Part shown: in pieces, positions 2,155 to 45,682 of the stretch | How the letters are laid out: each line of letters opens with the position of its first letter | Position numbering within the stretch: the first letter of the stretch is position 1 | Origin: a virus | Taxonomy: Duplodnaviria; Caudoviricetes | Virus record (IMG/VR): IMGVR_UViG_3300005611_000001 | Strand: one strand, 5' to 3' | DNA: 64,000 bases | Notes under the pieces: model-generated | What the model was told of the DNA's origin: nothing | The model's input: only the letters and a program-made list of their open reading frames with translations | Databases searched by the model: none | Position numbers and translations under genes: made by a program

Positions 2155-2161
2155 GGTCAGC

Positions 2162-5667: not shown

Positions 5668-5670
5668 TAA

Positions 5671-6039
5671 ATGGCTATTCCATTAAACGTATTTAAAACG
5701 ACAACTGCGGTTATTGCAGAAGAACCCTCTGGTGGGTTCATCGGCGATAGTGATCTTGTATACACTGTGCCTTCTGGAATTACCACAATTGTTCTGATGG
5801 CTCAGGTTGCTAACACTGATAGCGCTGAGCATACAGTTACATTCCAACATTATAATAACGTAAGCCTTGTTGCGACAGAGCTTGTGAAAGATTTTCCTAT
5901 ACCTCCAAAAGATGCAACTGGCTTGATTACAGGAAAATTAATTGTCGAACAAGGCAACAGAGTTCGCGCTTCTGTATCTGCAGGATCTGGCAGCACGATG
6001 AAACTCACATTAAGTTATCTGGAATCTCTAAATGGCTAG
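5671..6039 (+). CDS. Virion structural protein
   Basis: MAIPLNVFKT...YTVPSGITTIVLMAQVAN...LSYLESLNG; tight coupling in late operon. Confidence 0.65.
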   Translation: MAIPLNVFKTTTAVIAEEPSGGFIGDSDLVYTVPSGITTIVLMAQVANTDSAEHTVTFQHYNNVSLVATELVKDFPIPPKDATGLITGKLIVEQGNRVRASVSAGSGSTMKLTLSYLESLNG

Positions 6040-7240: not shown

Positions 7241-7245
7241 AATAA

Positions 7246-8001: not shown

Positions 8002-8002
8002 C

Positions 8003-8893: not shown

Positions 8894-10275
8894 TGTTTGG
8901 CACTTATTTTTATCACCAAAGGATTCGCAAAGCAGTAGCGGTGTTTGGCTCTCTGTTTAATAACATTAATGTTGTTCGAACAAACAGCGCTGGTGCTGTA
9001 ATGAGTCAAGTTAAAGTACCTTTGTCTTACGCACCAAAAAGAGATTTTCTAGCTAGAATCGATGCAACACAAGATGGTGAAGAAGCAGAGCGTCAGGTAG
9101 CAATTAAATTGCCAAGAATGTCTTTTGAAATTACGAATATGCAATATGATCCTGCAAGACAATTGCCTAAGATGAATAAGTGTGTGACTTTTCCCACGAA
9201 CTTCGAAGGTGGTGCGCGAGAGCTTTACACACCCGTTCCTTATCTAATTGGCTTTCAGTTGAATGTTTATGCAAAATCACAAGATGATGCATTACAAATT
9301 GTCGAACAGATTTTACCATATTTTACACCACAGTATACGGTGACTGTCAAGCCTTTATCTGATTTTGATACAAAAGAAGATACGCCAATTTCTTTGGTAG
9401 GTATTACTTTTAGTGATGACTATGAAGGGTTGATTGAGGCAAGAAGATCGATCATCTACACACTTGACTTTGAAATGAAACTCAGTCTCTATAAAAACAT
9501 TGCTGCAACAAGTGCGGTTATTACTTCTGCCGATGTTAATATCTACGACTATGACGACACAGATAATTTATACTCTACAGTCGAAGTTCGAACATTTTCG
9601 AAAGCGGGTCTTTCAGGTTCTCTTCTGTTCGAAGACGGTGGCACAATTACCAATTCCAATTTCAAAATAGATAATGTACCAGCAGAAGTTTCTTCGCTTG
9701 AAATATTGACAGCACCGTCAAACGGTACAGCAACAGCAACTTTGACTACGAACACTACAACAGCGCTTGGTAAAATTACGTCAACAGGCACTTGGACGTA
9801 TACGCCAAACGCAGACTGGTATGGATCAGATTCGTTTGTGATCAAAGCTAATTTTGTTGGTGGTGGATCGATCAATTCTACGATTACTGTCTCTGTACAG
9901 AATCCTGAAAAAGATGCGATCAATGATGCATTTACGTTTGATCTTGCTTTCGACAATTATATTGATTTCAACGTAGCATCAAACGATGATTTTGAAACAA
10001 CAGGCGGTGTTACATATTCTATTTCTGCTGGCGGTTACCCATCGAATGGTTCGGTGCAAGTTTTAAATGCGAATACAGGTGCGTTTAGATACACTCCAAA
10101 CGCAGGATTTACAGGAACAGATACTTTTCTTTACAGGGCAACACCAGCAACGGGTCAATCAGAAACGGGAATTGTTACGATAACAGTTAATGATACCGCA
10201 AGTACTATGATTGCAGAATCTGGTGCATTAATTGCAATAGAACAAGACATTGACACTATTATCGCTTACGAATAG
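8893..10275 (+). CDS. gp15: Tail sheath stabiliser/terminator with C-terminal Ig-like (cadherin/Big_9-type) domains
   Basis: MFGTYFYHQRIRKAVAVFGSLFNNI...VPLSYAPK...EQILPYFTP; C-terminal P.NG...YTPNA.[WF].G.D[ST]F repeats. Confidence 0.9.
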   Translation: MFGTYFYHQRIRKAVAVFGSLFNNINVVRTNSAGAVMSQVKVPLSYAPKRDFLARIDATQDGEEAERQVAIKLPRMSFEITNMQYDPARQLPKMNKCVTFPTNFEGGARELYTPVPYLIGFQLNVYAKSQDDALQIVEQILPYFTPQYTVTVKPLSDFDTKEDTPISLVGITFSDDYEGLIEARRSIIYTLDFEMKLSLYKNIAATSAVITSADVNIYDYDDTDNLYSTVEVRTFSKAGLSGSLLFEDGGTITNSNFKIDNVPAEVSSLEILTAPSNGTATATLTTNTTTALGKITSTGTWTYTPNADWYGSDSFVIKANFVGGGSINSTITVSVQNPEKDAINDAFTFDLAFDNYIDFNVASNDDFETTGGVTYSISAGGYPSNGSVQVLNANTGAFRYTPNAGFTGTDTFLYRATPATGQSETGIVTITVNDTASTMIAESGALIAIEQDIDTIIAYE

Positions 10276-10283
10276 GAACGATC

Positions 10284-10598
10284 ATGCCAACTATAAAAAT
10301 TTCTCAGTTAGACGAGTTTTCTGGAACACCAGATAGTTCTGATTTGCTTCCACTTGTAGATTTAAGTGAAACGCAAACTAAAAGAATCTCAATACGAGAT
10401 TTAGCCTCTTATATGGACAGCGCAGAAAACGCGACTAATGCAATTGTGGCTTTAAGAGCAGACACAACTGAAAATGCAATTTATGTTTCAGGAGACTCGT
10501 CTGGCATCTGGAGTGGTGATCCACCAGAAACTGTAAATGATGCAATTGATAGACTGGCTGCACTTATTCAATCTTTGAATGGTGGTACTGGCGCATAA
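10284..10598 (+). CDS. Small virion protein with KISQL N-terminal module
   Basis: N-terminus shared with 10636, 11344 and 12826. Confidence 0.65.
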   Translation: MPTIKISQLDEFSGTPDSSDLLPLVDLSETQTKRISIRDLASYMDSAENATNAIVALRADTTENAIYVSGDSSGIWSGDPPETVNDAIDRLAALIQSLNGGTGA

Positions 10599-10602
10599 TC
10601 AG

Positions 10603-10610
10603 TATAAATA
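10603..10610 (+). promoter_or_regulatory. T4-type late promoter
   Basis: Intergenic TATAAATA. Confidence 0.8.
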
Positions 10611-10635
10611 AAGAAAACTCTTTTGAGGAATTACG

Positions 10636-11340
10636 ATGGCTATAGCAGGCGTACCAATATCGACTCTTAGGGAACTTGTCATACCCGCGAGCGATGATTA
10701 TCTAGTCATTAATGACCAAAGCACTTTTACAACAAAAAGAATTACATTCGCTAATCTTTTTGCTGATTATGCTAGCAATCTTAGAGATTCTGCTACGGGT
10801 GCGTTCGTCGATAATTTTACAACTAACAGTCTTAACGTAAAAGGAAATGCGTCAGTTACGGGTGATGCTACGATCTTAGGCACAATCAATTTCGAAAATC
10901 TCTATGATGTTGTTGAAGGTATTACGATAAGTAAGTTTGTTGATGAAGCTGATGGTATTGCAAGTAATGATAATGATACTTCGATCCCAACATCAGCAGC
11001 AATAAAAGCATATGTTGACGGAGCTGTTTCTGACTATCGTGCAAAAGAAAACATCAAGCCATTTGGTGAGGCGTTAAAAAAACTAAATGGTATTAAAGCG
11101 TATGAGTACAACCTGATTGCAGAACCTGGCGTCACCGAAGTTGGTTTCATTGCACACGAACTACAAGAAAGATTGCCTACTTTAGTCAATGGCGAAAAAG
11201 ATGCAGTTTACGAAGGTGGTAAGCCGAAATATCAAACAGTGAATTACGCTAAAATGGTTCCCATTTTGTTCACCGCAATTCGTGAACTAGAAAAGCAAGT
11301 AAGAGACTTAAGAGATCAACTTGCAGAGATTAAAGGATAA
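10636..11340 (+). CDS. Short fibre with C-terminal intramolecular chaperone (peptidase S74) domain
   Basis: DYRAKENIK..ALKKL....YEY...GFIAHELQE..P.LV...VNYAKMVPIL..AIREL. Confidence 0.8.
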   Translation: MAIAGVPISTLRELVIPASDDYLVINDQSTFTTKRITFANLFADYASNLRDSATGAFVDNFTTNSLNVKGNASVTGDATILGTINFENLYDVVEGITISKFVDEADGIASNDNDTSIPTSAAIKAYVDGAVSDYRAKENIKPFGEALKKLNGIKAYEYNLIAEPGVTEVGFIAHELQERLPTLVNGEKDAVYEGGKPKYQTVNYAKMVPILFTAIRELEKQVRDLRDQLAEIKG

Positions 11341-11343
11341 ATC

Positions 11344-12798
11344 ATGGCTGGAGTAAAAATAACAGACTTAGATCAGCTGATTGGTCAACCTGCGGATGAT
11401 GATGTTCTTATTGTCGTAGACACAAGTGATAATGTCACAAAACAGATTACTGTTGCTGATCTTATTACTGCAACCGAAGATGCTACGACAGCACAGGTCG
11501 CTGATCAATTTAAAGTTGCCACAGAAAGTACGAATGCTTCTTTTTATGTTACCTTCGTAGCTTCTACTTCTGGGCAAGATTCAGCTAAAGTCGATACAGC
11601 TTTAAGTTATAATCCTGCTACGAATATTCTGACTGCTGGTCAGTTCACTGGAAGTGGTGCTGGGCTTACAAACGTAAATGCTGACAGCGCTCTGAATGCG
11701 GCTAATGCTGTCTTAGCGACCACTGCAATTACTGCTTTAAATGCTCTAGCAGCTGACAGTGCGACCACAGCAACTTCTTCTATTACTGCTTTGCGCGCCA
11801 CTTCTGCAGATAGTGCTACTAATGCCACGAACGCAATTGTTGCCCTTCGCGCGACAACTGCTGACAGTGCAGCAAATGCAACAAATGCATTGTTTGCAAC
11901 TACTGCCACTTCTGCTCTGACTGCTGACAGTGCCACTAACGCCACAAATGCCAATAATGCAATTAGAGCATTGACTGCTGCTGGTGCTGATAGTGCTGCG
12001 TTTGCTACTTCTGCTTTGACTGCTCAGACTGCGCAAATTTCTATTTTTTCTGACAGTGCAGGAAATGCAACCAATGCGCTTCATGCTTTAAATGCTGATG
12101 CTGCTTTGATTGCAGATAGTGCATTTAATGCTGCAAATGCTTTGCTCGCAACTCTTGCTATAGAATCTTTGGGCGATTTGGACAACATTAGAGATTCTGC
12201 TAATGGTGTAACAGCGACTGGTGATCTAACCGTTGATAGCGATCTTATCGTTCGCGGTGTTTTGTTCGGTGATGGTTCAGGTCTAACAGGTGTAACAAGT
12301 ACTTCTGTCGCAACTGCTGCAGAAAAAGTCGATGCGAAAGCTGCGGATTCGACCGGTACACACTATCTTATGTTGCGTACAACGCAAACTGGTTATGATA
12401 GTGTTTCAACTAAAGCTAATTTAACTTATGATCCTGTTACTGGTATTTTAGCGTCTGGTGGATTTTCTGGAGACGGGTCGAACATCAGCAACGTTGCTGC
12501 CGTTAGCGCAACAAATGCGTCAAACGTTGTAATTACAACAGTAGCAGACAGTTCGACATATTTCCCTTTGCTTTCAAGCACATCTTCTGGTAATGATAAT
12601 GTTCATGTTAGTGTGAATATGCAAGTCAATCCGTTTAGGGGAAGATTAAAGCTTAATATTTTTGCCACAGATAATTGGGAAATGTTTGAAAGCGCAAACG
12701 AACTATTCTTCTCATATAACGGAGTTAAGAAAGTTAAATTTGATTCGTCTGGCAATGTGTTCATGACAGGAACCCTTACTCAAAGCGCTTCGTTATAA
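11344..12798 (+). CDS. Tail fibre with Ala/Thr/Asn tripeptide repeats
   Basis: Repeated ADSA-TNA-TNA units; C-terminal LFFSYNGVKKVKFDSSGN fibre tip motif. Confidence 0.7.
   Translation: MAGVKITDLDQLIGQPADDDVLIVVDTSDNVTKQITVADLITATEDATTAQVADQFKVATESTNASFYVTFVASTSGQDSAKVDTALSYNPATNILTAGQFTGSGAGLTNVNADSALNAANAVLATTAITALNALAADSATTATSSITALRATSADSATNATNAIVALRATTADSAANATNALFATTATSALTADSATNATNANNAIRALTAAGADSAAFATSALTAQTAQISIFSDSAGNATNALHALNADAALIADSAFNAANALLATLAIESLGDLDNIRDSANGVTATGDLTVDSDLIVRGVLFGDGSGLTGVTSTSVATAAEKVDAKAADSTGTHYLMLRTTQTGYDSVSTKANLTYDPVTGILASGGFSGDGSNISNVAAVSATNASNVVITTVADSSTYFPLLSSTSSGNDNVHVSVNMQVNPFRGRLKLNIFATDNWEMFESANELFFSYNGVKKVKFDSSGNVFMTGTLTQSASL
11680..12150 (+). repeat. Degenerate coding repeat, DSA units spaced 18-24 aa
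   Basis: DSA spacings 24,18,18,21,21,21,21 aa, all multiples of 3. Confidence 0.8.
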
Positions 12799-12801
12799 AT
12801 A
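12794..12801 (+). promoter_or_regulatory. T4-type late promoter
   Basis: TATAAATA overlapping stop codon of 11344..12798. Confidence 0.75.
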
Positions 12802-12825
12802 TTGCTAGATTGCTGAGGAAACAAA

Positions 12826-13587
12826 ATGGCAGACATTAGAATTTCAGAGTTGTCCGAACTAATAAACATTGCGGCAGACGATGTTCTTGTCGTCAATGAT
12901 GTTTCGGCTGCGACGACGAAAAAAATCACTCGTGCAAACTTCTTAGTCGGTGTAACACAAAACGTTACGGACTCTGGCGATAATGCTGTTGTTGCTCAAG
13001 ATTTAACAGTAAACAATGATCTTTTCGTCGGTGGAAATATTGACACCACTGGTGATGTCAAGTTTGGTTCTTTAACAGATGCTGTTTCCGGTCTGACCGT
13101 AAATCGTATAATCAAAGATACCGATGGTTTGCAGAATCACGATAGCAACGGCGCTCTTCCTACTACTGGCTCTGTGATTGAATACTTAAATTATTACAAC
13201 ACTGACATTAATGTGCGCAATTCTTTTTCAGTGACTACGGCTTCACTTGCAAATAGTGATTCTGCAGAAGCGCTGATTGCTGGATACAAAGGCTACGCTC
13301 TGTACAAAATTCAAACAGACAAAGCTGCTTGGGTAAGAGTTTATACGGACTCGGCTTCAAGAACGGCTGATGAAGGAAGAGCTAAAGGAGTTACACCAGC
13401 AGACCACATAGGTCTTGTCTCTGAAGTTGTGACTTCTGGTGCGCAAACAATTAATCTTGCTCCAGCACCCGTTGGCTTTAATAATTCTTCACCTGTGAAA
13501 AGTTCGATCCCGCTTAAGATCGTGAATCTCAGCGGCTCTACGGACACTGTTCAAGTTACTCTTACGGCTATGAAGCTTGAAGGGTAA
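12826..13587 (+). CDS. Virion structural/fibre-associated protein
   Basis: RISEL N-terminal module; KGYALYKIQT..AAWVRVYTDSASR..D domain typical of marine T4-like virion proteins. Confidence 0.65.
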   Translation: MADIRISELSELINIAADDVLVVNDVSAATTKKITRANFLVGVTQNVTDSGDNAVVAQDLTVNNDLFVGGNIDTTGDVKFGSLTDAVSGLTVNRIIKDTDGLQNHDSNGALPTTGSVIEYLNYYNTDINVRNSFSVTTASLANSDSAEALIAGYKGYALYKIQTDKAAWVRVYTDSASRTADEGRAKGVTPADHIGLVSEVVTSGAQTINLAPAPVGFNNSSPVKSSIPLKIVNLSGSTDTVQVTLTAMKLEG

Positions 13588-13604
13588 AAAACAAGAAGAT
13601 TGTA

Positions 13605-16600
13605 ATGCATAAAGGCTTTCTCGACAAAAGAAGAAGATTCCTTAATCTGCGAGAAATGCAGATCGAAAATGTTTTGCCTGAACATTTTACACAGTCATAT
13701 CCAAAATTTATCAATCTTCTTTCTCGCTACTATGAGTGGCAAGATCAAAACAATCCTAATGAATTATTAAATCATCTTTTTGCGACTCGTGATATTAATG
13801 AAACTGATATCACGCTTCTCTCGTTTATTGAAGATGAGTTTCTTTTAGGCGAAGCATACTTCGAAGGCTTTGGTGACACCGAAGCAGAGAAAAGGGCTGC
13901 TGCAAATTTTTCAAATCAGATGTTTCGTTCAAAAGGCACAAAATTCGCAATCGAATGGTTTTTCAGATCATTCTATGGGCTAGACGCAGAAGTTCGTTAC
14001 ACAAAAGAAAATGTATTTACGCTCAACACACAGTCTTCTCAGATAGGACCAGATTCGCTACGCTATCTTACCAATGACGAACTATATCAGACATTTGCGC
14101 TTCTTGTTCGCGTAGGTGTTCCTATTGCAAAGTGGAGAGATATCTTTAAACTCTTTGCACATCCTGCGGGAATGTATCTCGGTGCTGAAGTTTCTATAAA
14201 TGATGCTGTGACTTCTGCCGTAAATTCTTTGATGCTTGATTCTGCAGTTGAACAAAGAGCCAACGAATCATATACAATTCTTGCAACGCCTGACAGCACA
14301 AACGAAGGCGCTATAATTAATTTTAAAGTTAACGGAACAAACATTCCTAACAATACTGGTTATATTTACTATCATGTTCTTGATCTCACTACAAGCGATT
14401 CAGATTTTGTGGGAACTGTTCCTCGATTAGACAGTTTGCAGTATCTTCCCATAAACGATAGTGCTGGTCAAGCGGTTGGAAGATTTACGATTACCACCAA
14501 GCTTGATAGTGTTGAAGGTGAAGGTGTTCATTCGTTTAATGTTATTTTGCGTGACGATGATTTGAGACCTCGAGGTGTTGAAAGAGTCAACTTAAACGAT
14601 GTTATTTCTTCGTATGTTATGACTCCTACGGCAACTACTATCGCTGAAGGTTCGCCTGTTACTTTTAATGTTGTGGGAACAAATGTCCCAAGCGGCGGTA
14701 GCACAACATTATATTATTATGTACAACACGTTACTACAAGTGATTCTGATTTTAAAGTTGCACCTCCAAGTGCTGCTGCGCCTGCTTCATTTTTTATTCG
14801 AGGAAGTACAGGGTCGTTTTCTATAACGCCTCAAATTGATAATGATCTTGTTGACAGTGACGAACAGTTTAAAGTAATTATTCAGACACTTGACGCTATC
14901 AAAAAAGATTCAGCAACAATTACAGTTTCACAGACCATTCCTCCCTTTGCTGTAAATGCAATTGATTCTGCGATTGAAGGCACGAGTATTGTTGCACCTC
15001 TTACAATTTCAGAACAAGATTTTGGCGACACTTTAACGTGGGCAATTACAGGCGCTGCAGCATCCGATAGTCGACTAGCTTTCAATACTTCAGGCACAAT
15101 TGTAGCGACTTCTGCAAGTCAAAATCTAGTAATACCTTTGGGCACTACTAAAGAATACACAGGTCCAGTTTCGGGAACCCTTACGGTCACAAATTCGAAC
15201 TATACTCCTACACCGTTAAGTACGAACAATACTTTCACGATTTTTGATTCTGCACCTACATATTCTATTCTTATGAATCCTGCAGTTGCTGGAGAAGGCG
15301 ACACCGTAACATTTAAACTAGCTGGCAGAAACATTCAAGACAGCACTTTTTATTTTTATATCGACAATGTAACAACTAACGATTTAGATTTTCTTGGTGG
15401 GCGACCAAAAAACACTAGCAGAGAAGCAGTCTCAGTTGTTAACGACTCTGGTACCACCAATTCAATCACTTTTGCTGACAGTGGTGAAGTTGTAGATCAA
15501 AATTTCATTGCTTACATGTATAATACAGTATCTGGTGGATCGGTGCTTGCGTCGAAGCAATTTACGATTGCGGGCATTACTTATACACTTACACCAAATA
15601 CGAGTTCTGTTAACGAAGGCGGTACAGTAACGTTTACGTTTATTGGTCCGGACGGAACTTATTATTACTGGCTTGAAGGGCAGCGGCTACCAGGACAGAC
15701 TCAGCTTTTCTCACAAGGCGATTTTACTAGTGGTTTTGCAAATATAAACAGTCGTTTGGCATTTAACGTAACCGGAGGCAGTGGATCTTTTTCAGTAACA
15801 CTCGCAAATGATATTCGATCAGAAGGTACAGAAGCTTTCATTGCAAGCGTGTCAACAAGCCCAACAAGCGGAGCTATAGCTGTTTCGCCACAGATTACAA
15901 TTAATGATACTTCTAAGCAAGAATATACGATGACGATTCAAAACATTCTTGAAGGTGACGATTTGCTTGTTAATGTAGCATCAAATGCAGGACCTTCAGA
16001 GCCTTTGTTTTATGAAATTTCTGGGGCGGCCGCGGCTAAATTCAGTTCAACACAAATTTATAGATTATACACTGGGGCTCAGACTTCTTTTAATGTAAAT
16101 CTTGGAACTTCGACAACAAACTCAGCTTTTGATGGTGTGTTATCTGGTACTGTAACACTGTCGCGTGGCGGTTATGTTGGAAGCGGCGGTACACTAATCG
16201 ACACCGCGAACTTTACTTTAAGCGATCTTGCTGCTACGTTTACGCTTGCTGCAAGCACAACTACACCAAACGAAGGCGGAACTATTACTTGGACTGTAGG
16301 CGGCTCAAGTATTGAAGACGGCACTTACTATTATAGAGTATCTGATGTTAAAAGAGCATCAGTATCTTCGGCTGTTTCATCCGGAACTTCTGTTATTAAT
16401 CTTGCAAGCACAGCTGGAATTACAGTTGGCATGGCATGCGATAACGCTTCAATATCTGGGACAGTCACAGGTGTTTGGGATACTCAAGTTACAATGAGTT
16501 CACCAGTCACATCTACGATAGGCGCAGGAACAATTTTGAATTTTGCAAATCAATCGGTGTTTGATGATTTTACAAGTGGCTATGCAGGATCAGTCAGTGT

Positions 16601-17687
16601 GACATCGAATGCAGGTGCTTTCAACACTGTCACTGCAATTAACGCAGACACTAAGAACGATGCGTATACGATGGGATTATACACCACATCAACTGGTGCT
16701 TCTCCTGTAGCGTCTGTAGGATTTACGACAACAGATGCAACTCCAGCTTCGATAGTTAATATTCTTATCGATGCTGGTAAAGACTTTGTTTACGATATTA
16801 ATCCTGATCCACCTGCGTATGATGCGGGCGTGGCAAGATCGATTATCAGATTTGAAAACGATGGTAAAGTATATGCTATTGGCAGCGAGAATCCAGGAGG
16901 AGGTGACCGCAGCAGTGGCGAGTTGATTGGCACTTGGGTGTCTAGTGGGCCCGTTGGTAACTTTAACATATCAGCACAGGTCGTTTCAGGACCTACACCA
17001 AAAGGCACGTTTATTGGTTCTACAGGAACGCAATTGTCTCTGTCGACGAACAGAGGCTGGTATCTTGAAGTGCCAGCGCCGACATCTGGTAGCAATGAAG
17101 GAACGTTAAGAGTTGACATTACAATTACAGACGTAGAAGATCCTTCGAACACAGACACACAACGCTTTGAGCTATATGCCGTTGCGAATGCTTTGCCTGT
17201 AACAGCACCTGTTGATCCGCCTCCTCCAGGCTCAAGTAGTCAGCTTGACGAAGACTGTTTTACAGAAAATTCTTTTGTCACGTTAACTGATGGAACTAGA
17301 AAAGAAATTCGATTAATTGAAGTTGGTGATAAAGTACTTGGTGCAGACAAGTCGATCAATGAAGTTACGCGCAATCATTCTATCGAAAAAACTTCTGCTC
17401 TGTATGGATGGGGCAGCACAGTACCGTTTGTGACTGGCGCTCATCCATTCTTAACAACACAAGGTTGGAAATGTTTTAATTTAGAAGCAGGGCGTAAACT
17501 ACATCCTGAGCTTGACCTGACAGAAATACAAGAAAACGATAAATTAATTGTTTGGAATGGAACAGAATATACGACTTCGACAGTTCAAAATATTGCCATT
17601 GAAATCAAAAACGTTAAAATCAATAGCTTGAGTGTGACGGGTAATGACACTTACATTGCGAATGGATTTGTTGTTCACAACAAATAA
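13605..17687 (+). CDS. Baseplate wedge subunit (gp7-like N-terminus) with Calx-beta/Ig-like repeats and C-terminal Hint domain
   Basis: ENVLPEHF...PKFINLL..YYEW, YRSKGT-like FRSKGT, HPAGMY; EG..VTF repeats; Hint CFT...HPF...VHNK at 17256-17684. Confidence 0.75.
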   Translation: MHKGFLDKRRRFLNLREMQIENVLPEHFTQSYPKFINLLSRYYEWQDQNNPNELLNHLFATRDINETDITLLSFIEDEFLLGEAYFEGFGDTEAEKRAAANFSNQMFRSKGTKFAIEWFFRSFYGLDAEVRYTKENVFTLNTQSSQIGPDSLRYLTNDELYQTFALLVRVGVPIAKWRDIFKLFAHPAGMYLGAEVSINDAVTSAVNSLMLDSAVEQRANESYTILATPDSTNEGAIINFKVNGTNIPNNTGYIYYHVLDLTTSDSDFVGTVPRLDSLQYLPINDSAGQAVGRFTITTKLDSVEGEGVHSFNVILRDDDLRPRGVERVNLNDVISSYVMTPTATTIAEGSPVTFNVVGTNVPSGGSTTLYYYVQHVTTSDSDFKVAPPSAAAPASFFIRGSTGSFSITPQIDNDLVDSDEQFKVIIQTLDAIKKDSATITVSQTIPPFAVNAIDSAIEGTSIVAPLTISEQDFGDTLTWAITGAAASDSRLAFNTSGTIVATSASQNLVIPLGTTKEYTGPVSGTLTVTNSNYTPTPLSTNNTFTIFDSAPTYSILMNPAVAGEGDTVTFKLAGRNIQDSTFYFYIDNVTTNDLDFLGGRPKNTSREAVSVVNDSGTTNSITFADSGEVVDQNFIAYMYNTVSGGSVLASKQFTIAGITYTLTPNTSSVNEGGTVTFTFIGPDGTYYYWLEGQRLPGQTQLFSQGDFTSGFANINSRLAFNVTGGSGSFSVTLANDIRSEGTEAFIASVSTSPTSGAIAVSPQITINDTSKQEYTMTIQNILEGDDLLVNVASNAGPSEPLFYEISGAAAAKFSSTQIYRLYTGAQTSFNVNLGTSTTNSAFDGVLSGTVTLSRGGYVGSGGTLIDTANFTLSDLAATFTLAASTTTPNEGGTITWTVGGSSIEDGTYYYRVSDVKRASVSSAVSSGTSVINLASTAGITVGMACDNASISGTVTGVWDTQVTMSSPVTSTIGAGTILNFANQSVFDDFTSGYAGSVSVTSNAGAFNTVTAINADTKNDAYTMGLYTTSTGASPVASVGFTTTDATPASIVNILIDAGKDFVYDINPDPPAYDAGVARSIIRFENDGKVYAIGSENPGGGDRSSGELIGTWVSSGPVGNFNISAQVVSGPTPKGTFIGSTGTQLSLSTNRGWYLEVPAPTSGSNEGTLRVDITITDVEDPSNTDTQRFELYAVANALPVTAPVDPPPPGSSSQLDEDCFTENSFVTLTDGTRKEIRLIEVGDKVLGADKSINEVTRNHSIEKTSALYGWGSTVPFVTGAHPFLTTQGWKCFNLEAGRKLHPELDLTEIQENDKLIVWNGTEYTTSTVQNIAIEIKNVKINSLSVTGNDTYIANGFVVHNK

Positions 17688-23978: not shown

Positions 23979-23986
23979 TATAAATA
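23979..23986 (+). promoter_or_regulatory. T4-type late promoter
   Basis: Intergenic TATAAATA. Confidence 0.75.
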
Positions 23987-24849: not shown

Positions 24850-25515
24850 ATGAAACTCATTGCTGAATACATTGACAACGGACTAGAAGTTATTACCGAA
24901 GCGAAGAGCGACGGTACTAAGTCCTATATGATTGAAGGCATCTTTGCACAAGCGGAACAAAAGAATCGTAACGGTCGTGTATACCCTCGCACAATCATGG
25001 AGCGAGCAGTAGAAAAATACATGACCGATCAAGTTGCTAAAAAGCGTTCGGTGGGTGAGTTGAATCACCCCGACGGACCTACTATCAACTTGGACAAAGT
25101 TTCTCACCTCATCACTGGGCTTCAATGGGAAGGCAATGATGTGGTTGGAAAGGCACAAATATTGGATACTCCAATGGGTAAGATTGTAAAAGGTCTACTT
25201 GATGGCGGTGTTCAACTAGGTGTGTCAACTCGTGGTATGGGTAGTCTTGAGCAAAGAAATGGCACTATGTATGTGCGTGACGACTTTATTTTAAATACTG
25301 TCGATATCGTACAAGATCCTTCTGCACCTGCAGCCTTTGTTAATGGAATTATGGAAGGTGTCGAATGGGTATGGAATAACGGTGTCATTCAAGCACAAGA
25401 AATTGAGAAGATGGAGACTGAAATTAAAGCCGCTCCGAAAAAGCATCTCTACGAGACGCAAGTTCGCGAGTACAAGAATTTCCTCTCACAGCTCAAATCA
25501 AACTTTAAGGAGTAA
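24850..25515 (+). CDS. gp21: Prohead protease
   Basis: KNRNGRVY, GELNHP, GVSTRGMGS, DIVQDPSAP.AFV. Confidence 0.97.
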   Translation: MKLIAEYIDNGLEVITEAKSDGTKSYMIEGIFAQAEQKNRNGRVYPRTIMERAVEKYMTDQVAKKRSVGELNHPDGPTINLDKVSHLITGLQWEGNDVVGKAQILDTPMGKIVKGLLDGGVQLGVSTRGMGSLEQRNGTMYVRDDFILNTVDIVQDPSAPAAFVNGIMEGVEWVWNNGVIQAQEIEKMETEIKAAPKKHLYETQVREYKNFLSQLKSNFKE

Positions 25516-25520: not shown

Positions 25521-26549
25521 ATGTCTGATCAAGACCAACATGTTGAGCTTCCGGTCGATGAGTCTATCGAGGAAGCTAGTGCTGCGAAGATGCCTGTAGG
25601 TACTGAGGCAGATTCAATTGCGTCTGTAGACAAGACGGATACTACTAAGAAGGCTCCCGCTCGTAAAGGGGATACCGGAAAGCAAGATCCGATGCCGAAG
25701 ACCAAAGCAGGAATGCTCAACGCTATGTATGGCAAGATGGCTGGTATGAAAAAAGACCAACTGACTGCTATGTACAGCAAGATGCAAGAAGAAGTCGATC
25801 TGGATGACGAAGAAGCCATTGAGCTTCCTGAGTTCTCTTACACCGACGAGCTTGATGCACTTGTTGAAAGCGAAGCAACATTGTCTGATGAGTTCAAAGC
25901 GAAGACTGCTGTGATCTTTGAAACGGCTATTCGTTCTAAGCTGTCTGAAGAAATTCAGCGCTTGGAAGATGAATATCAAACTCGCCTCGACGAAGAACTG
26001 GACGCTACGCGCACAGACCTTGTTGAGAAAGTTGATAGCTACCTCAACTACGTTGTTGAAAATTGGATGGAGCAAAACAAACTCGCTGTTGAGACTGGTC
26101 TGCGCACTGAAATCGCTGAAGATTTCATGGGCAAACTGAAGGACCTGTTCCTTGAGTCTTACATCGAAGTGCCTGAGTCCAAGATTGACCTAGTTGATGA
26201 ACTTGCTGAGCAAGTTGAAGAGCTTGAAGAAAAACTCAATGCTCAAACTGCTGACGTTCTTGCAATGAACGAAACGCTTGAGGCTTACATGCGCGAAGCT
26301 GTAATCCGTGAAGCTGCTCGTGACCTTGCAGAAACTCAAGTAGAAAAACTCAAGTCTCTTGTTGAGTCTCTTGACTTTGAAGACGAAGAAACTTTCGCAC
26401 AAAAGGTGAAAACTGTGAAAGAGTCTTACTTCAAGAAAGAAGTGAAGAGTGAAGAAGAGATTGTTGAAGATTGGGAAGCAGATCAATCGCGCGAAGTTTC
26501 TAGCGTGATGGATATGTACCTTAACGCAATTAAGAAATCCAATAAGTAA
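25521..26549 (+). CDS. gp22: Prohead core scaffolding protein
   Basis: LSDEFKAKTAVIFE, KVDSYLNYVVENW, GLRTEIAEDF; acidic coiled coil. Confidence 0.93.
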   Translation: MSDQDQHVELPVDESIEEASAAKMPVGTEADSIASVDKTDTTKKAPARKGDTGKQDPMPKTKAGMLNAMYGKMAGMKKDQLTAMYSKMQEEVDLDDEEAIELPEFSYTDELDALVESEATLSDEFKAKTAVIFETAIRSKLSEEIQRLEDEYQTRLDEELDATRTDLVEKVDSYLNYVVENWMEQNKLAVETGLRTEIAEDFMGKLKDLFLESYIEVPESKIDLVDELAEQVEELEEKLNAQTADVLAMNETLEAYMREAVIREAARDLAETQVEKLKSLVESLDFEDEETFAQKVKTVKESYFKKEVKSEEEIVEDWEADQSREVSSVMDMYLNAIKKSNK

Positions 26550-26560
26550 GGAGTACAACA

Positions 26561-27943
26561 ATGACTGTACAAGTGTCTTATGACAAACTGATGGAGAAGT
26601 GGGCTCCCGTTCTGAACGAAGAGTCTGCTGGCGCCATCAAAGATAACCATCGTCGCGCTGTGACGGCTGCTATTCTTGAGAACCAAGAAATGGCATTCCG
26701 TGAAGAAGCCGGCATGCTGGCCGAAGCCCCCACCAACACCAACTTCACCGCTACTGGTGCTGCTGCTGGCGTGACGGGTGCTAACTGGAACCCCGTGCTT
26801 ATCGCCCTCGTGCGTCGCGCTATGCCTAACCTCATGGCTTATGACCTCGCTGGTGTGCAGCCGATGACGGGTCCGACTGGTCTTATCTTCGCAATGAAGA
26901 GCCGTTACAAGACGACTCGTGGCGGTGCAACTGACGGTGCAGAAGCACTTGGTCTCCAAGAGCCTCACACTCCGTTCTCTGGCGACTCTTCTGTGTCGCA
27001 AGATTCTCAGTTTGCTTCCGGCAACAAGGGTCCTTCTGGTCTCTCTGGTGTGACCGACACAGACGACGATTCTTCTATCGTTGACTCTGGTTCGACTTAT
27101 GTGCCTGGCGTGGGCGGTGGTATGCCTACTGCTGACGCAGAAGCACTCGGTTCGACCGGTTCTGCATTCGCAGAAATGGGCTTCACCATTGAGAAAGCAA
27201 CTGTGACTGCTAAGAGCCGCGCTCTGAAAGCAGAATACAGCCTTGAGCTTGCTCAAGACCTCAAAGCAATCCACGGGCTTGACGCCGAGACGGAACTTGC
27301 GAACATTCTCAGCACAGAAATTCTTGCTGAAATCAACCGTGAGATCGTCCGTACGATCAATGCTCAAGCTAAGATCGGTTGCCGGACTGCAAACGTTCAA
27401 ACTCAAGGTATCTTCGACCTCAGCACCGACGCTGATGGCCGTTGGTCCGTTGAGAAGTTCAAGGGTCTCCTCGTGCAACTTGAGCGTGAAGCCAATGTTA
27501 TCGCGAAAGAAACTCGTCGCGGTAAGGGCAACATCGTGGTTTGCTCCTCGGATGTTGCTACGGCTCTCGTGGCTGCTGGCATGCTCGACTATTCGCCTGC
27601 TCTCAGCACGAACCTGCAAGTGGACGACACAGGCAACACCTTTGCTGGTGTGCTGAATGGTCGTACTCGTGTGTACATCGACCCCTATGCAGTTGCAGAC
27701 TATGTGACTGTGGGCTACAAGGGCACGAACCCTTACGACGCCGGTGTGTTCTACTGCCCCTATGTGCCGCTCCAAATGGTGCGCGCTGTGGGCGAGAACG
27801 ACTTCCAGCCTCGCATCGGGTTCAAGACTCGCTACGGCATGGCTTCCAACCCCTTCGTTGGTTCCACTCCCGCAGACGGTCTTGCCACGAACCGCACGAA
27901 CCAGTACTATCGCATCTTCCGCGTGGACAACATCCTCGCCTAA
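26561..27943 (+). CDS. gp23: Major capsid protein
   Basis: LVRRAMPNLMAYDLAGVQPMTGPTGLIFAM, KSRALKAEYSLELAQDL, FQPRIGFKTRYGM. Confidence 0.99.
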   Translation: MTVQVSYDKLMEKWAPVLNEESAGAIKDNHRRAVTAAILENQEMAFREEAGMLAEAPTNTNFTATGAAAGVTGANWNPVLIALVRRAMPNLMAYDLAGVQPMTGPTGLIFAMKSRYKTTRGGATDGAEALGLQEPHTPFSGDSSVSQDSQFASGNKGPSGLSGVTDTDDDSSIVDSGSTYVPGVGGGMPTADAEALGSTGSAFAEMGFTIEKATVTAKSRALKAEYSLELAQDLKAIHGLDAETELANILSTEILAEINREIVRTINAQAKIGCRTANVQTQGIFDLSTDADGRWSVEKFKGLLVQLEREANVIAKETRRGKGNIVVCSSDVATALVAAGMLDYSPALSTNLQVDDTGNTFAGVLNGRTRVYIDPYAVADYVTVGYKGTNPYDAGVFYCPYVPLQMVRAVGENDFQPRIGFKTRYGMASNPFVGSTPADGLATNRTNQYYRIFRVDNILA

Positions 27944-31727: not shown

Positions 31728-32801
31728 ATGAAAGTAGCAATACTGAATGATACGCATTGCGGAATTCGCAATTCTGCTGAGATTATGATGCAGTATCAAG
31801 AGCGCTTCTATTCTGAAGTGTTCTTTCCACACCTGCTGAAGAATGGTATCACCAAGATTCTACACCTTGGTGACTACTATGACAATCGCAAGTTCATCAA
31901 CTTCAAAGCGCTAGAACACAATCGCAAAATCTTTTTAGAGAAACTGCGTGAACATAAGATTCACATGGATATCATTCCAGGTAACCATGATGTGTTCTAT
32001 AAGAATACCAATGACCTAAACGCTTTGAAAGAACTGCTCGGTCACTACATGGCAGAAGTTCGAATCATCGAAAAACCTACTGTCGTAGACTATGACGGCA
32101 TGCCTATGGCTCTCGTTCCCTGGATCAATGACGAGAATGAGAAAGAAACTTACGAGTTTCTGTCAAAGTGTAAAGCGTCAATTGTTGGCGCGCATCTAGA
32201 ACTAGAAGGCTTTGAAATGCAAGCAGGCATTCCATGTACGCATGGCATGAGTTCTGATATCTTCAAGCGATTCGACATGGTGCTGACTGGTCACTTCCAT
32301 TCAAAGTCGAACATGGGCAACATTCACTATCTTGGTTCGCAGATGGAGTTTTTCTGGTCAGACGCGCACGAACCAAAATACTTCCATGTACTTGATACGA
32401 ATACTCGCGAACTGACTGCAGTTCACAATCCCATCACATTGTTCCAGCGACTCTACTATGATGATACCGTAGAGAAAGCAGAGTATAAGTACCGCACTGG
32501 GCAGCTACCAGATATCACTGACAAGTTTGTGAAAGTCGTGGTTGTTAACAAATCGAATCCTAAACTGTTTGATCATTGGCTAGACCGCATTCAATCAAAG
32601 CGCATTCATGAGCTTAAGATTGCTGAGAACTTCGAAGAGTTTGTGGGTACATCAGTCGAAGATGAAAAAGTTTCTGTTGAATCTACAGAACAACTTCTCG
32701 CTAGTTATATCGATGCAGTTGAAACACCGTTAGACAAAGCGCGTATCAAAAACATGATGCACGAATTAATGATTGAAGCACAGACAATGGATATTGTATG
32801 A
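31728..32801 (+). CDS. gp47: Recombination endonuclease subunit (Mre11/SbcD-like)
   Basis: DTH, HLGDYYD, PGNHD, GAHLE, TGHFH. Confidence 0.96.
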   Translation: MKVAILNDTHCGIRNSAEIMMQYQERFYSEVFFPHLLKNGITKILHLGDYYDNRKFINFKALEHNRKIFLEKLREHKIHMDIIPGNHDVFYKNTNDLNALKELLGHYMAEVRIIEKPTVVDYDGMPMALVPWINDENEKETYEFLSKCKASIVGAHLELEGFEMQAGIPCTHGMSSDIFKRFDMVLTGHFHSKSNMGNIHYLGSQMEFFWSDAHEPKYFHVLDTNTRELTAVHNPITLFQRLYYDDTVEKAEYKYRTGQLPDITDKFVKVVVVNKSNPKLFDHWLDRIQSKRIHELKIAENFEEFVGTSVEDEKVSVESTEQLLASYIDAVETPLDKARIKNMMHELMIEAQTMDIV

Positions 32802-33346
32802 CATGGTATGACTCTAAGTTTCCAAAACCGGAAATGACTGAAGAAGAATTTCAATTTCTCACAGCAAACTTTACCAAAGACGATGTGGTAATCGAATACG
32901 GTAGCGGGCATTCTACACCAAATTTAGCACCTCTAGTCGGTGAGCTTTGGACTGTTGATCATCACGAGCAATGGTACAACAAGGTAAAAGACATGTGTTC
33001 TGGTTTTACTAATGTCAGACACATCCATGTACCTTTCGACGCGCCACGCCGCCCACCAGCCGTCTGGCGACGCAATCCAGAGGCAGTGTACGGATTTCCT
33101 ACGCCCTTTGAGTGCGTCAAATCTTACTCAACCTGGATACTGACTCAAGAACAGAAGTTTGATAAAGTGTTTCTTGACGGTCGAGGAAGACAATGGGTGG
33201 CTCAGATGATTATTAACAATCTCAAAGAAGATCATGAACTGTTTGTACATGACTACATTGACCGCAAAAGATACTTTACAATTGAACGCTTCTATGATAA
33301 GATAGAGGTCGTTGGTTCTATGGCAAAGTTTAAGTGTAAAATATGA
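32798..33346 (+). CDS. Class I SAM-dependent methyltransferase-like protein
   Basis: VIEYGSGHST, WTVDH, KFDKVFLDGR. Confidence 0.75.
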   Translation: MTWYDSKFPKPEMTEEEFQFLTANFTKDDVVIEYGSGHSTPNLAPLVGELWTVDHHEQWYNKVKDMCSGFTNVRHIHVPFDAPRRPPAVWRRNPEAVYGFPTPFECVKSYSTWILTQEQKFDKVFLDGRGRQWVAQMIINNLKEDHELFVHDYIDRKRYFTIERFYDKIEVVGSMAKFKCKI

Positions 33347-37135: not shown

Positions 37136-37930
37136 ATGTATCGCGACAATATTTTCTATTTTAATGGATATAGAAAAGAGTTTATAGATTTTAGAACTTG
37201 CCCAAAAAATGGATCAACTTCGATCAAAGAACTTTATTTAAAAACTTTGAGCCCTAAAGAATTGTATAATTATGAAAATTATGTAAAAACAAGCACGCAC
37301 GAGCCGCTGAATTGGAGACAAAGATTGATCTGGTTTTACGCTGATCAATTTGATATGCCTTTTCGCAAAAATTCAATTCGTTTTGCAATAAGAAGAGATC
37401 CTCTAGATAGATTTAAGTCCGCAGTTGAAATGTTACAGGCCCAATCAAAAATTGCAAAAGTTGATCCTGATATCAATGTCGATGGTTTTGACAAATCGTA
37501 TAAAGGCTATTCATCAGTAAAAGAAGTCTTAGACAAACTAGAATCAAATGAAATTGTAAATGCTCATTTTTGGACTCAGACATATTATATGGGTCATCCT
37601 TCTCAATATGATTATGTTTATGATATTTCAGAAATGGGCGCTTGTTTGACGCATGTGACGAATTTTGTTAGCTTGCGAGATTTACAGCTTGACAAATACC
37701 CAATCCACTTGCTGATGTCAAATAATTCTTCTGATGAAGATTTGGCAAAAGTAAAGTCGGAAGAATACAATTTTAAGAAGCGCATGGGTACACATTTTGA
37801 TTTTGTGAAAATATCAGAAGAAGAAAAAATAACAAGGCATATGACATCAATGGATTATGCAAGAGTCCGTAAACTTTACAAAATCGACTACGAAAATGGT
37901 TGGGGAATTCCCGCAAATGTATATCGTTGA
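37136..37930 (+). CDS. Sulfotransferase (family 2-like)
   Basis: 5'-PSB CPKNGSTS, 3'-PB FAIRRDPLDRFKSA, HFWTQ. Confidence 0.8.
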   Translation: MYRDNIFYFNGYRKEFIDFRTCPKNGSTSIKELYLKTLSPKELYNYENYVKTSTHEPLNWRQRLIWFYADQFDMPFRKNSIRFAIRRDPLDRFKSAVEMLQAQSKIAKVDPDINVDGFDKSYKGYSSVKEVLDKLESNEIVNAHFWTQTYYMGHPSQYDYVYDISEMGACLTHVTNFVSLRDLQLDKYPIHLLMSNNSSDEDLAKVKSEEYNFKKRMGTHFDFVKISEEEKITRHMTSMDYARVRKLYKIDYENGWGIPANVYR

Positions 37931-38540
37931 AAAAACAACTCCCTGGCCTCATTGGGTAATAGACGATTTTTTGCCCAAGCACGAATTTGAATATCTTCAG
38001 ATGCTCACAAAAAATTGGCCAAAACCTAGGGACACAATCGATAAGTTGAATTGCAGATTAGATTGGTTTAAATTCTATGATCAAACTTATAAATTCGATG
38101 ACGAAGCTATTGAAGTTCGAAAAATTTTAAAACGGTCTGCAAAAAGACTAGAAAAAAGATTCGATATAAAGAATAAGTACAAGTCTTTGCATCTTGAATA
38201 TGCAAACTGTGGGCGCGATTATTATTACAGGGTGCATGTTGATGCACAAACAAAGTTCATGAGCAATGTTCTTTATGTCTCTCCTGACGGTGATGGCACC
38301 AGACTTTTTTCAGATAAAAACATGAATGATGTTGTATATGTTGACTGGAAGCCAAATCGTTTAGTATCATTCTTGGTAGACGATTACAAATATCATGACT
38401 ATTACTCTACAGTTGATGATAGAATTACGTTTAATATTTGCTTTATGAATAGCAGTATAAACTCAAAAAATCCACCGAAAAGATTTGAAGGTGGTGATGT
38501 TTTAACTTTGAGGGACATCTATAATAATGAATCCATTTGA
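37917..38540 (+). CDS. 2OG-Fe(II) oxygenase (prolyl-hydroxylase-like)
   Basis: PWPHWVIDDFL, HVD, GTRLF, WKPNRL, YH...RITFN. Confidence 0.8.
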   Translation: MYIVEKTTPWPHWVIDDFLPKHEFEYLQMLTKNWPKPRDTIDKLNCRLDWFKFYDQTYKFDDEAIEVRKILKRSAKRLEKRFDIKNKYKSLHLEYANCGRDYYYRVHVDAQTKFMSNVLYVSPDGDGTRLFSDKNMNDVVYVDWKPNRLVSFLVDDYKYHDYYSTVDDRITFNICFMNSSINSKNPPKRFEGGDVLTLRDIYNNESI

Positions 38541-40031: not shown

Positions 40032-40763
40032 ATGATTAAAGCCATAATGCAAATTGATCTCAATAATGCTTTGGCTTTAAGATATCACGAAGTTGCATTA
40101 AAATCTTTTGAAAGAGTCTCAGACATATTTGAGATTGAAGTGGTGCAATGTGTTTTGCCCACCACTCTTCTTCCTGAACTAAAAGACATACCTAATGCAT
40201 TGACGAAAAGATCGCCGCAAGAGTTAGCATCACTACACTCTAATTATCGCATGGCAAAAAGAATTTCAGAAGGCGAAAGATTCTGGGTTCTTGAACATGA
40301 TGCGTATCTTCGCCCACAACACGAAGACGTTTTTCGCATGATTATGTCCAAGTGGCTCACAAAAGATTCTACTTTTCAACTAGGTATGGCAAACGAATTT
40401 TGGACTACCGTACCTGCAATTGCAAAGATGTATTGTGAGCAAGTGCAAAAAGGATGGGACATTGGCCCTATGTCGCTTTTGCATCGTGTCACAGACGCAT
40501 ACTGCAGAACAAAAAAACACAATCATCGAGACACCTATTGGCCCATGAATCGATTTAAAAATCCAGAATGGCGCAACAAAACAGGTGTAGACATTAACGT
40601 AAGTATAGCGTATAATAGACCCAGCATTGTCATTGACTCTCCTATCACTCAAATTTTGGATGAGAAATATGGCGGCACTGTACGCGACAGAAAACGCCCA
40701 AATAAAATATATGTCAGGGAAGCACACCCTGACGTTGAATGGATAAAACTTGATAACGAATGA
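40032..40763 (+). CDS. Glycosyltransferase (GT25-like)
   Basis: [12 protein letters not shown]...[10 protein letters not shown] resembles GT25 C..SH..W...vlEDD motif. Confidence 0.6.
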
Positions 40764-44758: not shown

Positions 44759-45682
44759 ATGATGAGTGAAAAAGAAAAAGTGATTGAATTAGAGAATGCA
44801 AAGGTAATTCAACCTGACGATGCTGACTCTGAAAAACAATCTGCAGCACCACCTCCCGGCGCAGTTGCTAAGTTTCGTGTCGGAATTATTGGTGATAATG
44901 CACTAGGTCGTGCCGCTGATGTGGCTTTTAATACCAAGACGACCGAACGCAAAATGGTTTCCGGTTTTCAAGACGTTGATGAACTGATCGCATGGAAGCC
45001 TCAGATTGCAATTATCTGCGCTGACGTGCCTCTTCTGAAAAACGATACTCTTGATGACGCTGAGCTTCTTGATACCGTCAACAAGCTTATTCGTCAAATT
45101 GAGTGTGCTGTCTGCATTCGTTCGACGATGAATATCGAAACAATTGAGCGCATGATTCTTTCTATGGGTCCTCAAGCATTTGATGCTAAAGTGATCTACA
45201 TGCCCGAAGTTGCTGATCCCAACAATCTGGGAAGTGTTCTGTCTGCTGATTACGCTCTGATTGGTGGTGCAGAAAAAACAATTCCTGCATTTTTGAAGAT
45301 CATTCGTGATACAAGTCAGCTATCTGCACAAGAAGTTGTGGCGGGTACTGTTTTCGAAGTTGCGTATGCGAAGCTTGGTATCGCTGGTTTTAAAGCTGTA
45401 AAACAAACCTACTTTAATCAACTATATGATACGATTCTTGATGTTAAGAATGCTAATCCCATCAACGTTCGTCGCATGATGGAAAAGTCTTCTGAATTGA
45501 CTGATCGTACTACAATGGTGCCTACATTTATTCGTGCGCAGGCTGAAGAAGGTGTGACCTATAAGCAAGCGAGAGCTTACTCGGGCGAATATCTTAATGA
45601 TGATGCCCGACTACTTATCGGTATGACCGATAAACTGCCTGTTCTTGACGAGTGTGTTAACTTCAAAAACCTGAAGGACTAG
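44759..45682 (+). CDS. Degenerate UDP-glucose dehydrogenase-like protein
   Basis: RVGIIG Rossmann start, IRSTM, YMPE, IGG, YAKL...FKAVKQTYFNQ; catalytic GGxCFPKD replaced by GEYLNDD. Confidence 0.65.
   Translation: MMSEKEKVIELENAKVIQPDDADSEKQSAAPPPGAVAKFRVGIIGDNALGRAADVAFNTKTTERKMVSGFQDVDELIAWKPQIAIICADVPLLKNDTLDDAELLDTVNKLIRQIECAVCIRSTMNIETIERMILSMGPQAFDAKVIYMPEVADPNNLGSVLSADYALIGGAEKTIPAFLKIIRDTSQLSAQEVVAGTVFEVAYAKLGIAGFKAVKQTYFNQLYDTILDVKNANPINVRRMMEKSSELTDRTTMVPTFIRAQAEEGVTYKQARAYSGEYLNDDARLLIGMTDKLPVLDECVNFKNLKD

Follow-up and report, generated by a model that had tools for sequence, protein, structure and literature searches.

The major capsid protein gp23 of phage T4 carries an insertion (I) domain that protrudes from the capsid surface and rests on the neighbouring subunit (PMC9546572). 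A loop of this domain at G201/A202 is flexible and solvent-exposed, and nine Asp or Glu residues have been inserted there without harm to the phage (PMC10229621). Here we describe the equivalent segment in the gp23-type major capsid protein encoded at positions 26561-27943 (plus strand, 460 amino acids) of IMG/VR record IMGVR_UViG_3300005611_000001, a stretch of 64,000 nucleotides (hereafter the window) that is a portion of an uncultured T4-like phage. The four Asp-Ser (DS) dipeptides of this protein all lie in the segment, and an earlier note had proposed that they represent the same sequon as in the fibres. We instead favour, with a probability of roughly 60%, the reading that the DS pairs serve as turn or cap positions, conserved within the clade, in a reduced, acidic, Ser/Gly-rich I-domain loop.

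T4 gp23 (PDB 7VS5, 5VF3 and 6UZC) and the window protein belong to the same family, share the predicted fold and have the segment at the same position, between the motifs F-S-G and G-M-x-T. They differ in the segment itself, which in T4 consists of 70 amino acids with the β-strand sequence of the I domain, and in the window of 45 amino acids without strand sequence, rich in Ser, Gly and Asp and carrying most of the net charge. The engineered "9DE" T4 capsid (PDB 8GMO), in which nine Asp/Glu at G201/A202 give an acidic ring on each capsomer, has its acidic run at what is, by alignment, the same exposed loop (PMC10229621). Compared to that insert, the acidic run in the window is natural, shorter (D-T-D-D-D plus D175), mixed with Ser and conserved in position within its clade. 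The major capsid proteins of four marine T4-like phages, namely C48C1, Pelagibacter phage HTVC008M, Methylophilales phage Melnitz and Synechococcus phage S-SSM7, are 57-68% identical to the window protein and have a short variable segment like that of the window, and the order of genes is shared as well. In the alignment, neither F-S-G-D-S nor D-S-[ST]-I was found in any of these four or in T4; C48C1 has D-A at the first site and a single, unrelated DS. The features of the segment are as follows.

26984-27088, plus strand: stretch with the four DS pairs (D142-S143, D148-S149, D170-S171 and D175-S176), from a count of the sequence
26984-27118, plus strand: I-domain-equivalent segment, amino acids 142-186 (45 amino acids, 70 in T4), from the MAFFT alignment with T4; unaligned in the phmmer match
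27032-27043, plus strand: P-S-G-L, amino acids 158-161, the best conserved motif inside the loop (S159 in 60, G160 in 61 and L161 in 54 of 62 near relatives)
27056-27085, plus strand: acidic core D166-T-D-D-D-S-S-I-V-D175, which follows G163/V164 (aligned with T4 G201/A202)

Location of the segment on the capsid

The phmmer alignment of the window protein with T4 gp23 breaks at the loop, with amino acids 8-147 matching T4 7-162 and amino acids 184-436 matching T4 224-488. In the MAFFT alignment, the segment is anchored on one side by F-S-G (139-141 in the window, 154-156 in T4) and on the other by G-M-x-T (187-190 and 227-230, respectively). The interval between these anchors in T4 is the I domain plus linker ends. 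Inside the interval, T4 A-G201-A202-T-D pairs with S-G163-V164-T-D166 of the window, and the acidic run D-T-D-D-D-S-S-I-V-D-S begins two residues past the equivalent of the T4 insertion point. Since the anchors bracket the whole T4 I domain, and the run aligns beside the exposed G201/A202, a position of amino acids 142-186 on the exterior of the capsid is well supported by homology, as the earlier note had supposed in calling the stretch a surface loop. In T4, the I domain is partly buried where it meets the neighbouring subunit. The shared position between F-S-G and G-M-x-T suggests that the window segment corresponds in its topological role to the outer arm that T4 gp23 lays on the neighbouring subunit.

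The AlphaFold2 model of the window protein displays coil for amino acids 117-189 (predicted local distance difference test score, pLDDT, 57-75), interrupted only by two helical turns of three residues each, at 137-139 and at 174-176, the latter just after S172. Compared to the T4 I domain, the segment is 25 amino acids shorter, in the right place and predicted to lack the strands of the domain. Of the -8 net charge on the predicted mature gp23, amino acids 141-183 account for -6.

Composition and conservation of the Asp-Ser pairs

The DS pairs occur at amino acids 142, 148, 170 and 175 and nowhere else in the protein, which contains only one SD. Nucleotide 26984 is the first base of D142 and nucleotide 27088 the last base of S176; the coordinates and counts of the earlier note (four pairs in 35 amino acids, none elsewhere) are exact. 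For the whole of gp23, 1.65 DS are expected (P(≥4) = 0.074), and four pairs in 35 amino acids had a probability of 0.0003 when the whole protein was shuffled. The loop itself is rich in both residues, with 12 Ser and 7 Asp in 47 amino acids. Shuffling of the loop alone gave a mean of 1.78 DS and P(≥4) = 0.058, and P = 0.006 when four DS and zero SD were demanded. Thus, we conclude that the clustering of DS is mainly an effect of composition, with a directional bias.

Conservation was analyzed separately for 62 uncultured relatives whose gp23 is at least 70% identical (70-93%, here termed near relatives) and for 19 with less than 70% identity (far relatives). The mean frequency of the most common residue was 0.52 for amino acids 141-183, as compared to 0.83 for the rest of gp23, and the length of the loop ranged from 7 to 56 amino acids across the homologues. 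These values agree with the description of the segment as the variable part of gp23, both in the earlier note and in the literature (PMC4360716).

Among the near relatives, G141 was invariant, and D142 and S143 occurred together in 53 of the 62 (53 for each residue) while the flanking positions 144-150 varied freely; both were replaced together, by T-Q or T-K, in seven. The second site was not conserved (D148 in 13 and S149 in 16 near relatives). In the acidic core, D166, D170 and D175 were present in 48, 45 and 44 of the near relatives, respectively, position 168 was D, N or S in 52, position 172 was Ser or Thr in 55 (28 S, 27 T) and position 173 was I, L or V in 53. The residues found at position 171 were Ser (35), Gly (11), Asn (5) and Ala (2), and those at position 176 were Ser (26), Asp (15), Glu (6), Gln (4), Ala (3) and Thr (2). 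Thr took the place of a DS serine in only two of the 62 proteins, both at position 176 and none at position 143 or 171; free exchange between Ser and Thr was seen only at position 172, outside any DS pair.

In the far relatives, DS was essentially absent, D166 was found in 16 and D170 in 13 of the 19 proteins, and Pro followed D170 in 10. T4 gp23 also has Asp at the positions aligned with D166 and D170. The persistence of these residues in the far clade and in T4 suggests that the Asp residues predate the Ser residues. Three of the four DS pairs are thus clade-specific and conserved in position, kept in the near relatives and essentially absent from the far ones.

These data bear on the simplest possibility, namely that a low-complexity loop of Ser, Asp and Gly holds four unconstrained DS pairs by composition or chance. 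The loop-only shuffle (P = 0.058), the lack of conservation at amino acids 148-149 and the wide range of loop lengths, including an almost complete deletion in one relative, are all in line with such an origin. However, D142 and S143 are kept together amid freely varying neighbours, D170, S/T172, I/L/V173 and D175 are conserved too, and the combination of four DS and zero SD is rare in the shuffled loops (P = 0.006). Pure composition is disfavoured because this positional conservation is observed in relatives that are not near-clonal (70-93% identity), and we regard it as very unlikely.

Another explanation of the conserved core is a cation site, in which D166-x-D168-x-D170-S-S-I-x-D175 would bind Ca2+ or Mg2+ from sea water and so staple the arm onto the subunit next to it. 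Both DS pairs of the core, at 170 and 175, would then be ligand positions. In Dx[DN]xDG calcium loops (PMC3123361), Asp residues occupy positions 1, 3 and 5 of a six-residue loop, with an acidic residue downstream; D166, D168 and D170 of the window lie at the corresponding positions. The retention of D166, D170 and D175, and of D, N or S at position 168, is consistent with such a site. The exact motif was identified in the loop segment of 7 of 81 homologues, at the aligned position in about five of them (alignment by eye), and a relaxed form, D-x-[DNS]-x-D-[SGN], in 26 further homologues including the window. Outside the segment, only 3 exact motifs were found in all 81 proteins. Moreover, loops with Dx[DN]xDG have arisen by convergence on many occasions (PMC3123361). 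On the other hand, all metal-binding examples in that survey have Gly at the sixth position, which is S171 in the window and Gly in 11 of the 62 near relatives. In addition, 48 of the 81 homologues fit neither form of the motif, and the first DS pair is left unexplained. We therefore consider a cation site rather unlikely, although somewhat less so than pure composition. An EF-hand reading of D166-G177 was also tried and was dropped since positions 6, 9 and 12 do not fit the PROSITE pattern.

In the reading that we favour, the stretch would be the tip of a reduced I domain, that is, an arm equivalent to the E-loop that would lie outside the shell, on top of the adjacent subunit within its capsomer. 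Among the uncultured aquatic T4-like phages of this clade, the I domain known from T4 would have shrunk to about 45 residues of Ser/Gly/Asp-rich coil, which bears most of the negative charge of mature gp23. Three of the DS pairs, in the contexts F-S-G-D-S, D-S-[ST]-[ILV] and x-D-S, would act like turn or helix-cap positions, where Asp is retained and Ser can be swapped with Gly, Asn, Pro or Asp, and the fourth (amino acid 148) would be a by-product of composition. The presence of Gly, Asn, Pro and Asp at the serines fits a turn or cap; an O-glycosylation acceptor would likely show an exchange of Ser and Thr. The role of the loop is likely to be structural or physico-chemical, as a hydrophilic and strongly acidic element that would shape and anchor the arm and make the exterior of the capsid negative, and the loop is probably no tag for a modifying enzyme. 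This function is inferred, as are the geometry of the turns or caps and how exposed each residue is, whereas the analysis shows directly what the protein is, where the segment lies relative to T4, how it is conserved and how it is charged. If correct, the segment represents an ordinary, tidy case of a gp23 I domain that marine T4-like phages have pared down and decorated anew, with a natural acidic loop where engineers of T4 have put an artificial one. As such, it would be of use for the modelling and engineering of capsid surfaces and for reading the diversity of the g23 marker gene.

Several observations weigh against a turn or cap function. The bracketing by the two anchors is certain, but between them, in the variable segment, the pairing of individual residues with those of T4 is uncertain. 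In one relative with 77% identity (L046:2054-3298), the I-domain-equivalent loop has shrunk to about 8 residues between F-S-G and G-M-x-T; gp23 may thus have no structural need for the loop, which, if this is a working gene, would be dispensable for capsid assembly. DS is favoured over SD, with a ratio of 4:0 in the loop of the window and 168:60 in the loops of the 81 homologues, where 76 are expected from composition and the sequences are non-independent. Finally, the DS capsid loop and DS-rich fibres co-occur in one clade, even though the fibres of the window and of G001 are not homologues that BLAST detects, which leaves room for a shared cause.

The fibre module and a possible modification of serines

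A shared cause of this type is implied by the sequon proposed in the earlier note. In such an explanation, one or more serines of the loop would be O-glycosylated or would receive another group, such as sulfate, from phage enzymes in the cytoplasm that have the DS-rich fibres as substrates too, resulting in a capsid-wide coat. The following features of the window are relevant to this explanation.

2162-17687, plus strand: fibre/baseplate module with DS excess, with DS-rich open reading frames (ORFs) at 2162-3289, 3331-5667, 6032-7240, 11344-12798 and 13605-17687; PHROG tail-fibre matches
289-1059, plus strand: remote nucleotide-sugar transferase-like gene (GT8 / Nucleotid_trans-like), with a language-model feature score of 0.97 to Nucleotid_trans/GT8 clusters (Atlas)
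40032-40763, plus strand: GT25-like protein, encoded immediately ahead of the DNA polymerase gene, with a language-model feature score of 0.96 to GT25-bearing clusters (Atlas); no Pfam/PHROG match

A precedent exists in the cluster F1 mycobacteriophages Che8 and Rita, for which capsid glycosylation by phage enzymes, shown experimentally, is reported (Freeman et al. 2023, as cited in PMC11256854). The two phages, of an unrelated virus family and host, are a functional analogue of the sugar-coated capsid proposed in the earlier note. We know of no documented capsid-wide glycosylation outside the mycobacteriophages.

The location of the loop on the outside of the capsid and the conservation of three DS sites are consistent with modified serines, and an excess of DS over SD is seen in the fibres as well as in the capsid loop. 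In nine ORFs of the fibre module (1801-17687, neck genes left out), we counted 84 DS versus 29 expected, 29 SD versus 29 expected and 21 DT versus 33 expected. The neck genes between the DS-rich fibre ORFs showed no DS excess. The contexts of the pairs were distinct. In the fibres, the motif has a hydrophobic residue ahead of DS and Ala behind it, the Ala being found in 31 of the 84 cases, 3.9 times the background, but the capsid sites read DSS, DSQ, DSS and DSG, with Ala at none of the four. The claim that the capsid loop carries the same sequon as the fibres was thus not borne out. What stands of the proposed glycosylated surface loop is the identity of gp23, the variable segment and its exterior position; the shared sequon and the glycosylation site are not supported. 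The near absence of Ser/Thr interchange at the DS serines and the depletion of DT in the fibres also argue against an acceptor site, and so does position 171, where Ser gives way to Pro in the far relatives and to Gly or Asn in the near ones.

We also compared the sites to known types of acceptor. The general O-glycosylation of the Bacteroidetes type reportedly uses the sequon D-(S/T)-(A/I/L/V/M/T), attributed to Fletcher et al. 2009, and takes place in the periplasm, on exported proteins. None of the four capsid sites has a third residue of this kind, and 48 of the 84 fibre DS pairs do (background 0.44). In addition, gp23 assembles in the cytoplasm, and its N-terminus is the gp23 propeptide and not a signal peptide, which does not agree with export. 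The staphylococcal enzymes SdgA and SdgB glycosylate SDR proteins on long tandem (Ser-Asp)n repeats. The four DS pairs do not resemble such an acceptor, as they are isolated, 4-20 residues apart, and form no tandem repeat.

Glycosyltransferase (GT) content was judged within the 64-kb window and in the records of the relatives. Among the ORFs of the window, none matched a curated glycosyltransferase at the Pfam or PHROG threshold. The ORFs at 289-1059 and 40032-40763 are GT-A-like as judged by language-model features only, and together with one sulfotransferase-like gene they provide candidate enzymes for a serine modification. The first of them gave no Pfam/PHROG match at threshold (best GT2 match E = 0.042) and nothing at E ≤ 1 among the sequences of solved structures; its homologues were found in the records G001, C48C1 and G014. 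Weak homologues of the second were identified in G001, G005 and C48C1.

The occurrence of the GT-like genes and the DS loop was tracked in about 18 records, mostly fragments, with one discordant complete genome and no statistics. G001, the record of a capsid gene of the DS-loop type (L020), has homologues of both GT-like genes. The discordant genome, C48C1, also contains both homologues, yet its capsid protein has D-A at the first site and none of its proteins has a DS excess. Conversely, G003 displayed a GT8 match above the cut-off but has no DS loop. The comparison of loops with GT presence, which the earlier note had proposed as a check, thus speaks against its interpretation, since the DS traits do not simply follow the GT-like genes.

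ORFs with DS excess were also sought in 18 records, with at least 6 DS, an observed/expected ratio of at least 2.5 and a Poisson P < 0.01 as thresholds. Strong cases were confined to the clade with at least 70% gp23 identity, namely to the window and the records G001, G007, G008 and G011. No strong cases were found in C48C1, G002, G004, G006, G012 and G013, and G003 had one weak case. The three- to four-fold excess was located at 2162-17687 in the window, 119628-132844 in G001 (L092-L093), 541-3984 in G008 (L121), 125-2251 in G007 (L118) and 9705-10502 in G011 (L127). The DS-rich fibres of the window had no homologue in G001 that was detectable by BLAST, although G001 has a DS-rich cluster of its own (119.6-132.8 kb). 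Such a co-occurrence of DS-rich fibres and DS capsid loops, even without detectable homology of the fibres, is compatible with a shared cause and is the one finding that sustains the idea of a common Ser-modifying enzyme for fibres and capsid. However, it represents one evolutionary contrast because it is confined to a single clade, and within this clade G008 (L038) combines a fibre of 35 DS, versus 11 expected, with a capsid protein that lacks the first and the third site.

The genes that the window shares only with G001, which is of the DS type, are the ORF at 32798-33346, a dCMP deaminase gene (58060-58545) and two tiny ORFs, as estimated from the comparison of gene contents. There was no evident protein-modifying enzyme among them. 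The ORF at 32798-33346 encodes 182 amino acids and is flanked by two nuclease genes, one gp47-like and one gp46-like; it gave no Pfam/PHROG match, and a homologue was present in G001 alone of the four genomes compared.

Taken together, we consider it very improbable that the serines of the loop are modified by enzymes that also act on the fibres, given the differing sequence contexts, the lack of a curated glycosyltransferase in the window and the discordant relatives. Equally little credence is given to the broader scheme in which the clade marks both fibres and the capsid I-domain loop with DS sites that are read by a phage-encoded serine-modifying enzyme, be it a glycosyltransferase or a sulfotransferase, and capsid-wide modification in this clade appears unlikely. 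Had it occurred, four sites on each of the gp23 copies of a capsid, which we take to number about 775 assuming T=13, would amount to thousands per particle, and the "hundreds of sites" of the earlier note would be an underestimate. The particle would then have a glycan or anionic coat. This would be a second, unrelated case of capsid glycosylation, in abundant ocean phages, and would change the view of their surface, stickiness, grazing and recognition by immune systems.

Additional genes with a possible relation to sugars or sulfation were observed in the window. The ORF at 37136-37930 is sulfotransferase-like (PHROG galactose-3-O-sulfotransferase, E = 2e-5; Pfam Sulfotransfer_2, E = 0.004, below the cut-off). 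It overlaps a 2OG-Fe(II) oxygenase-like ORF at 37857-38540, and both are inserted after the clamp-loader gene. In the four compared genomes, the former was not found and the latter had a weak partial match in G003 only. Between the primase and UvsX genes, the ORF at 44759-45682 (307 amino acids) matched the PHROG "UDP-glucose dehydrogenase" (E = 1e-12) and no Pfam family; the annotation of C48C1 at this place is an epimerase and a UDP-glucose dehydrogenase. The sugar-nucleotide genes of the window may serve the remodelling of lipids rather than the decoration of the virion.

A few proteins of the fibre/baseplate module have unusual architectures. The Ala-rich fibre protein encoded at 11344-12798 is composed of a repeat unit of about 18 residues with A-D-S-A-x-N-A at its start and matches the Chlorovirus glycoprotein repeat (PF06598; 29 bits, cut-off 27) at amino acids 307-324. 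The gp15-like tail sheath stabiliser (8893-10275) has a C-terminal extension of about 230 amino acids with Big_9 and cadherin-like Ig domains, which is missing from the C48C1 homologue (7499-8275). The 1360-amino acid baseplate-wedge-like protein (13605-17687) has a Hint/intein-like module at its C-terminus (amino acids 1215-1360), which starts with Cys and ends with V-V-H-N-K. The Pfam matches to Hint (E = 7e-5) and Hom_end_hint (E = 7e-4) were both below threshold, and this C-terminus may be self-cleaving.

The capsid gene and its genomic context

The assignment of the capsid gene is based on several types of comparison. Pfam Gp23 (PF07068) matched the protein with E = 3.6e-147 and 491 bits (cut-off 24.4) over profile positions 2-376 of 376, and phmmer matched the T4 gp23 chains with E = 4e-85 and about 40% identity over the core. 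The AlphaFold2 model (74 sequences, mean pLDDT 71) aligned with T4 gp23 over 337 amino acids (6uzc_C, Z = 25.2), with Z = 24.7 for 5vf3_A and Z of about 14 for HK97. Sequence and model thus identify the protein as a member of the T4 gp23 family with a predicted HK97-like fold. The closest gp23 of a deposited phage is that of C48C1, with 67.5% identity, followed by Pelagibacter, Methylophilales and cyanophage proteins with 57-59%. At least 80 relatives with 61-93% identity were found in IMG/VR. At the nucleotide level (megablast, 50,697 phage records), the capsid gene gave no match, and matches were obtained only in the search at the protein level. On the opposite strand, an ORF of 430 amino acids (26483-27775, minus strand) overlaps the capsid gene and is read as an artefact of its composition, not as a gene.

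A Shine-Dalgarno sequence, AAGGAG, is located 7 nucleotides upstream of the capsid gene. T4 gp23 is cleaved after residue 65 (PMC9546572), and the phmmer alignment with this site suggests a propeptide in the window protein. A prohead protease would cut after L-A-E55, in the context L-A-E55/A56. The protease gene (24850-25515), named by synteny with C48C1, is upstream of the capsid gene; no paralogue corresponding to gp24 was found in the 64-kb window. The features of this region are given below.

26561-26725, plus strand: predicted propeptide, amino acids 1-55, from the phmmer alignment with the T4 gp23 cut after residue 65
23979-23986, plus strand: nearest T4-type late promoter box (TATAAATA) upstream of the capsid gene, from a scan for boxes

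The order of genes in the window is neck, terminase, sheath, tube, portal, protease, scaffold and capsid, and then UvsY, UvsW, gp46/47, clamp, clamp loader and DNA polymerase, which agrees with that of phage C48C1 (Kyanoviridae). The scan of the whole window for late promoter boxes of the T4 type (TATAAATA) identified 11, all on the plus strand, as compared to 2.6 expected by chance. There is no such box directly before the capsid gene, and the box at 23979 probably drives a prohead operon of which the capsid gene would be the last gene.

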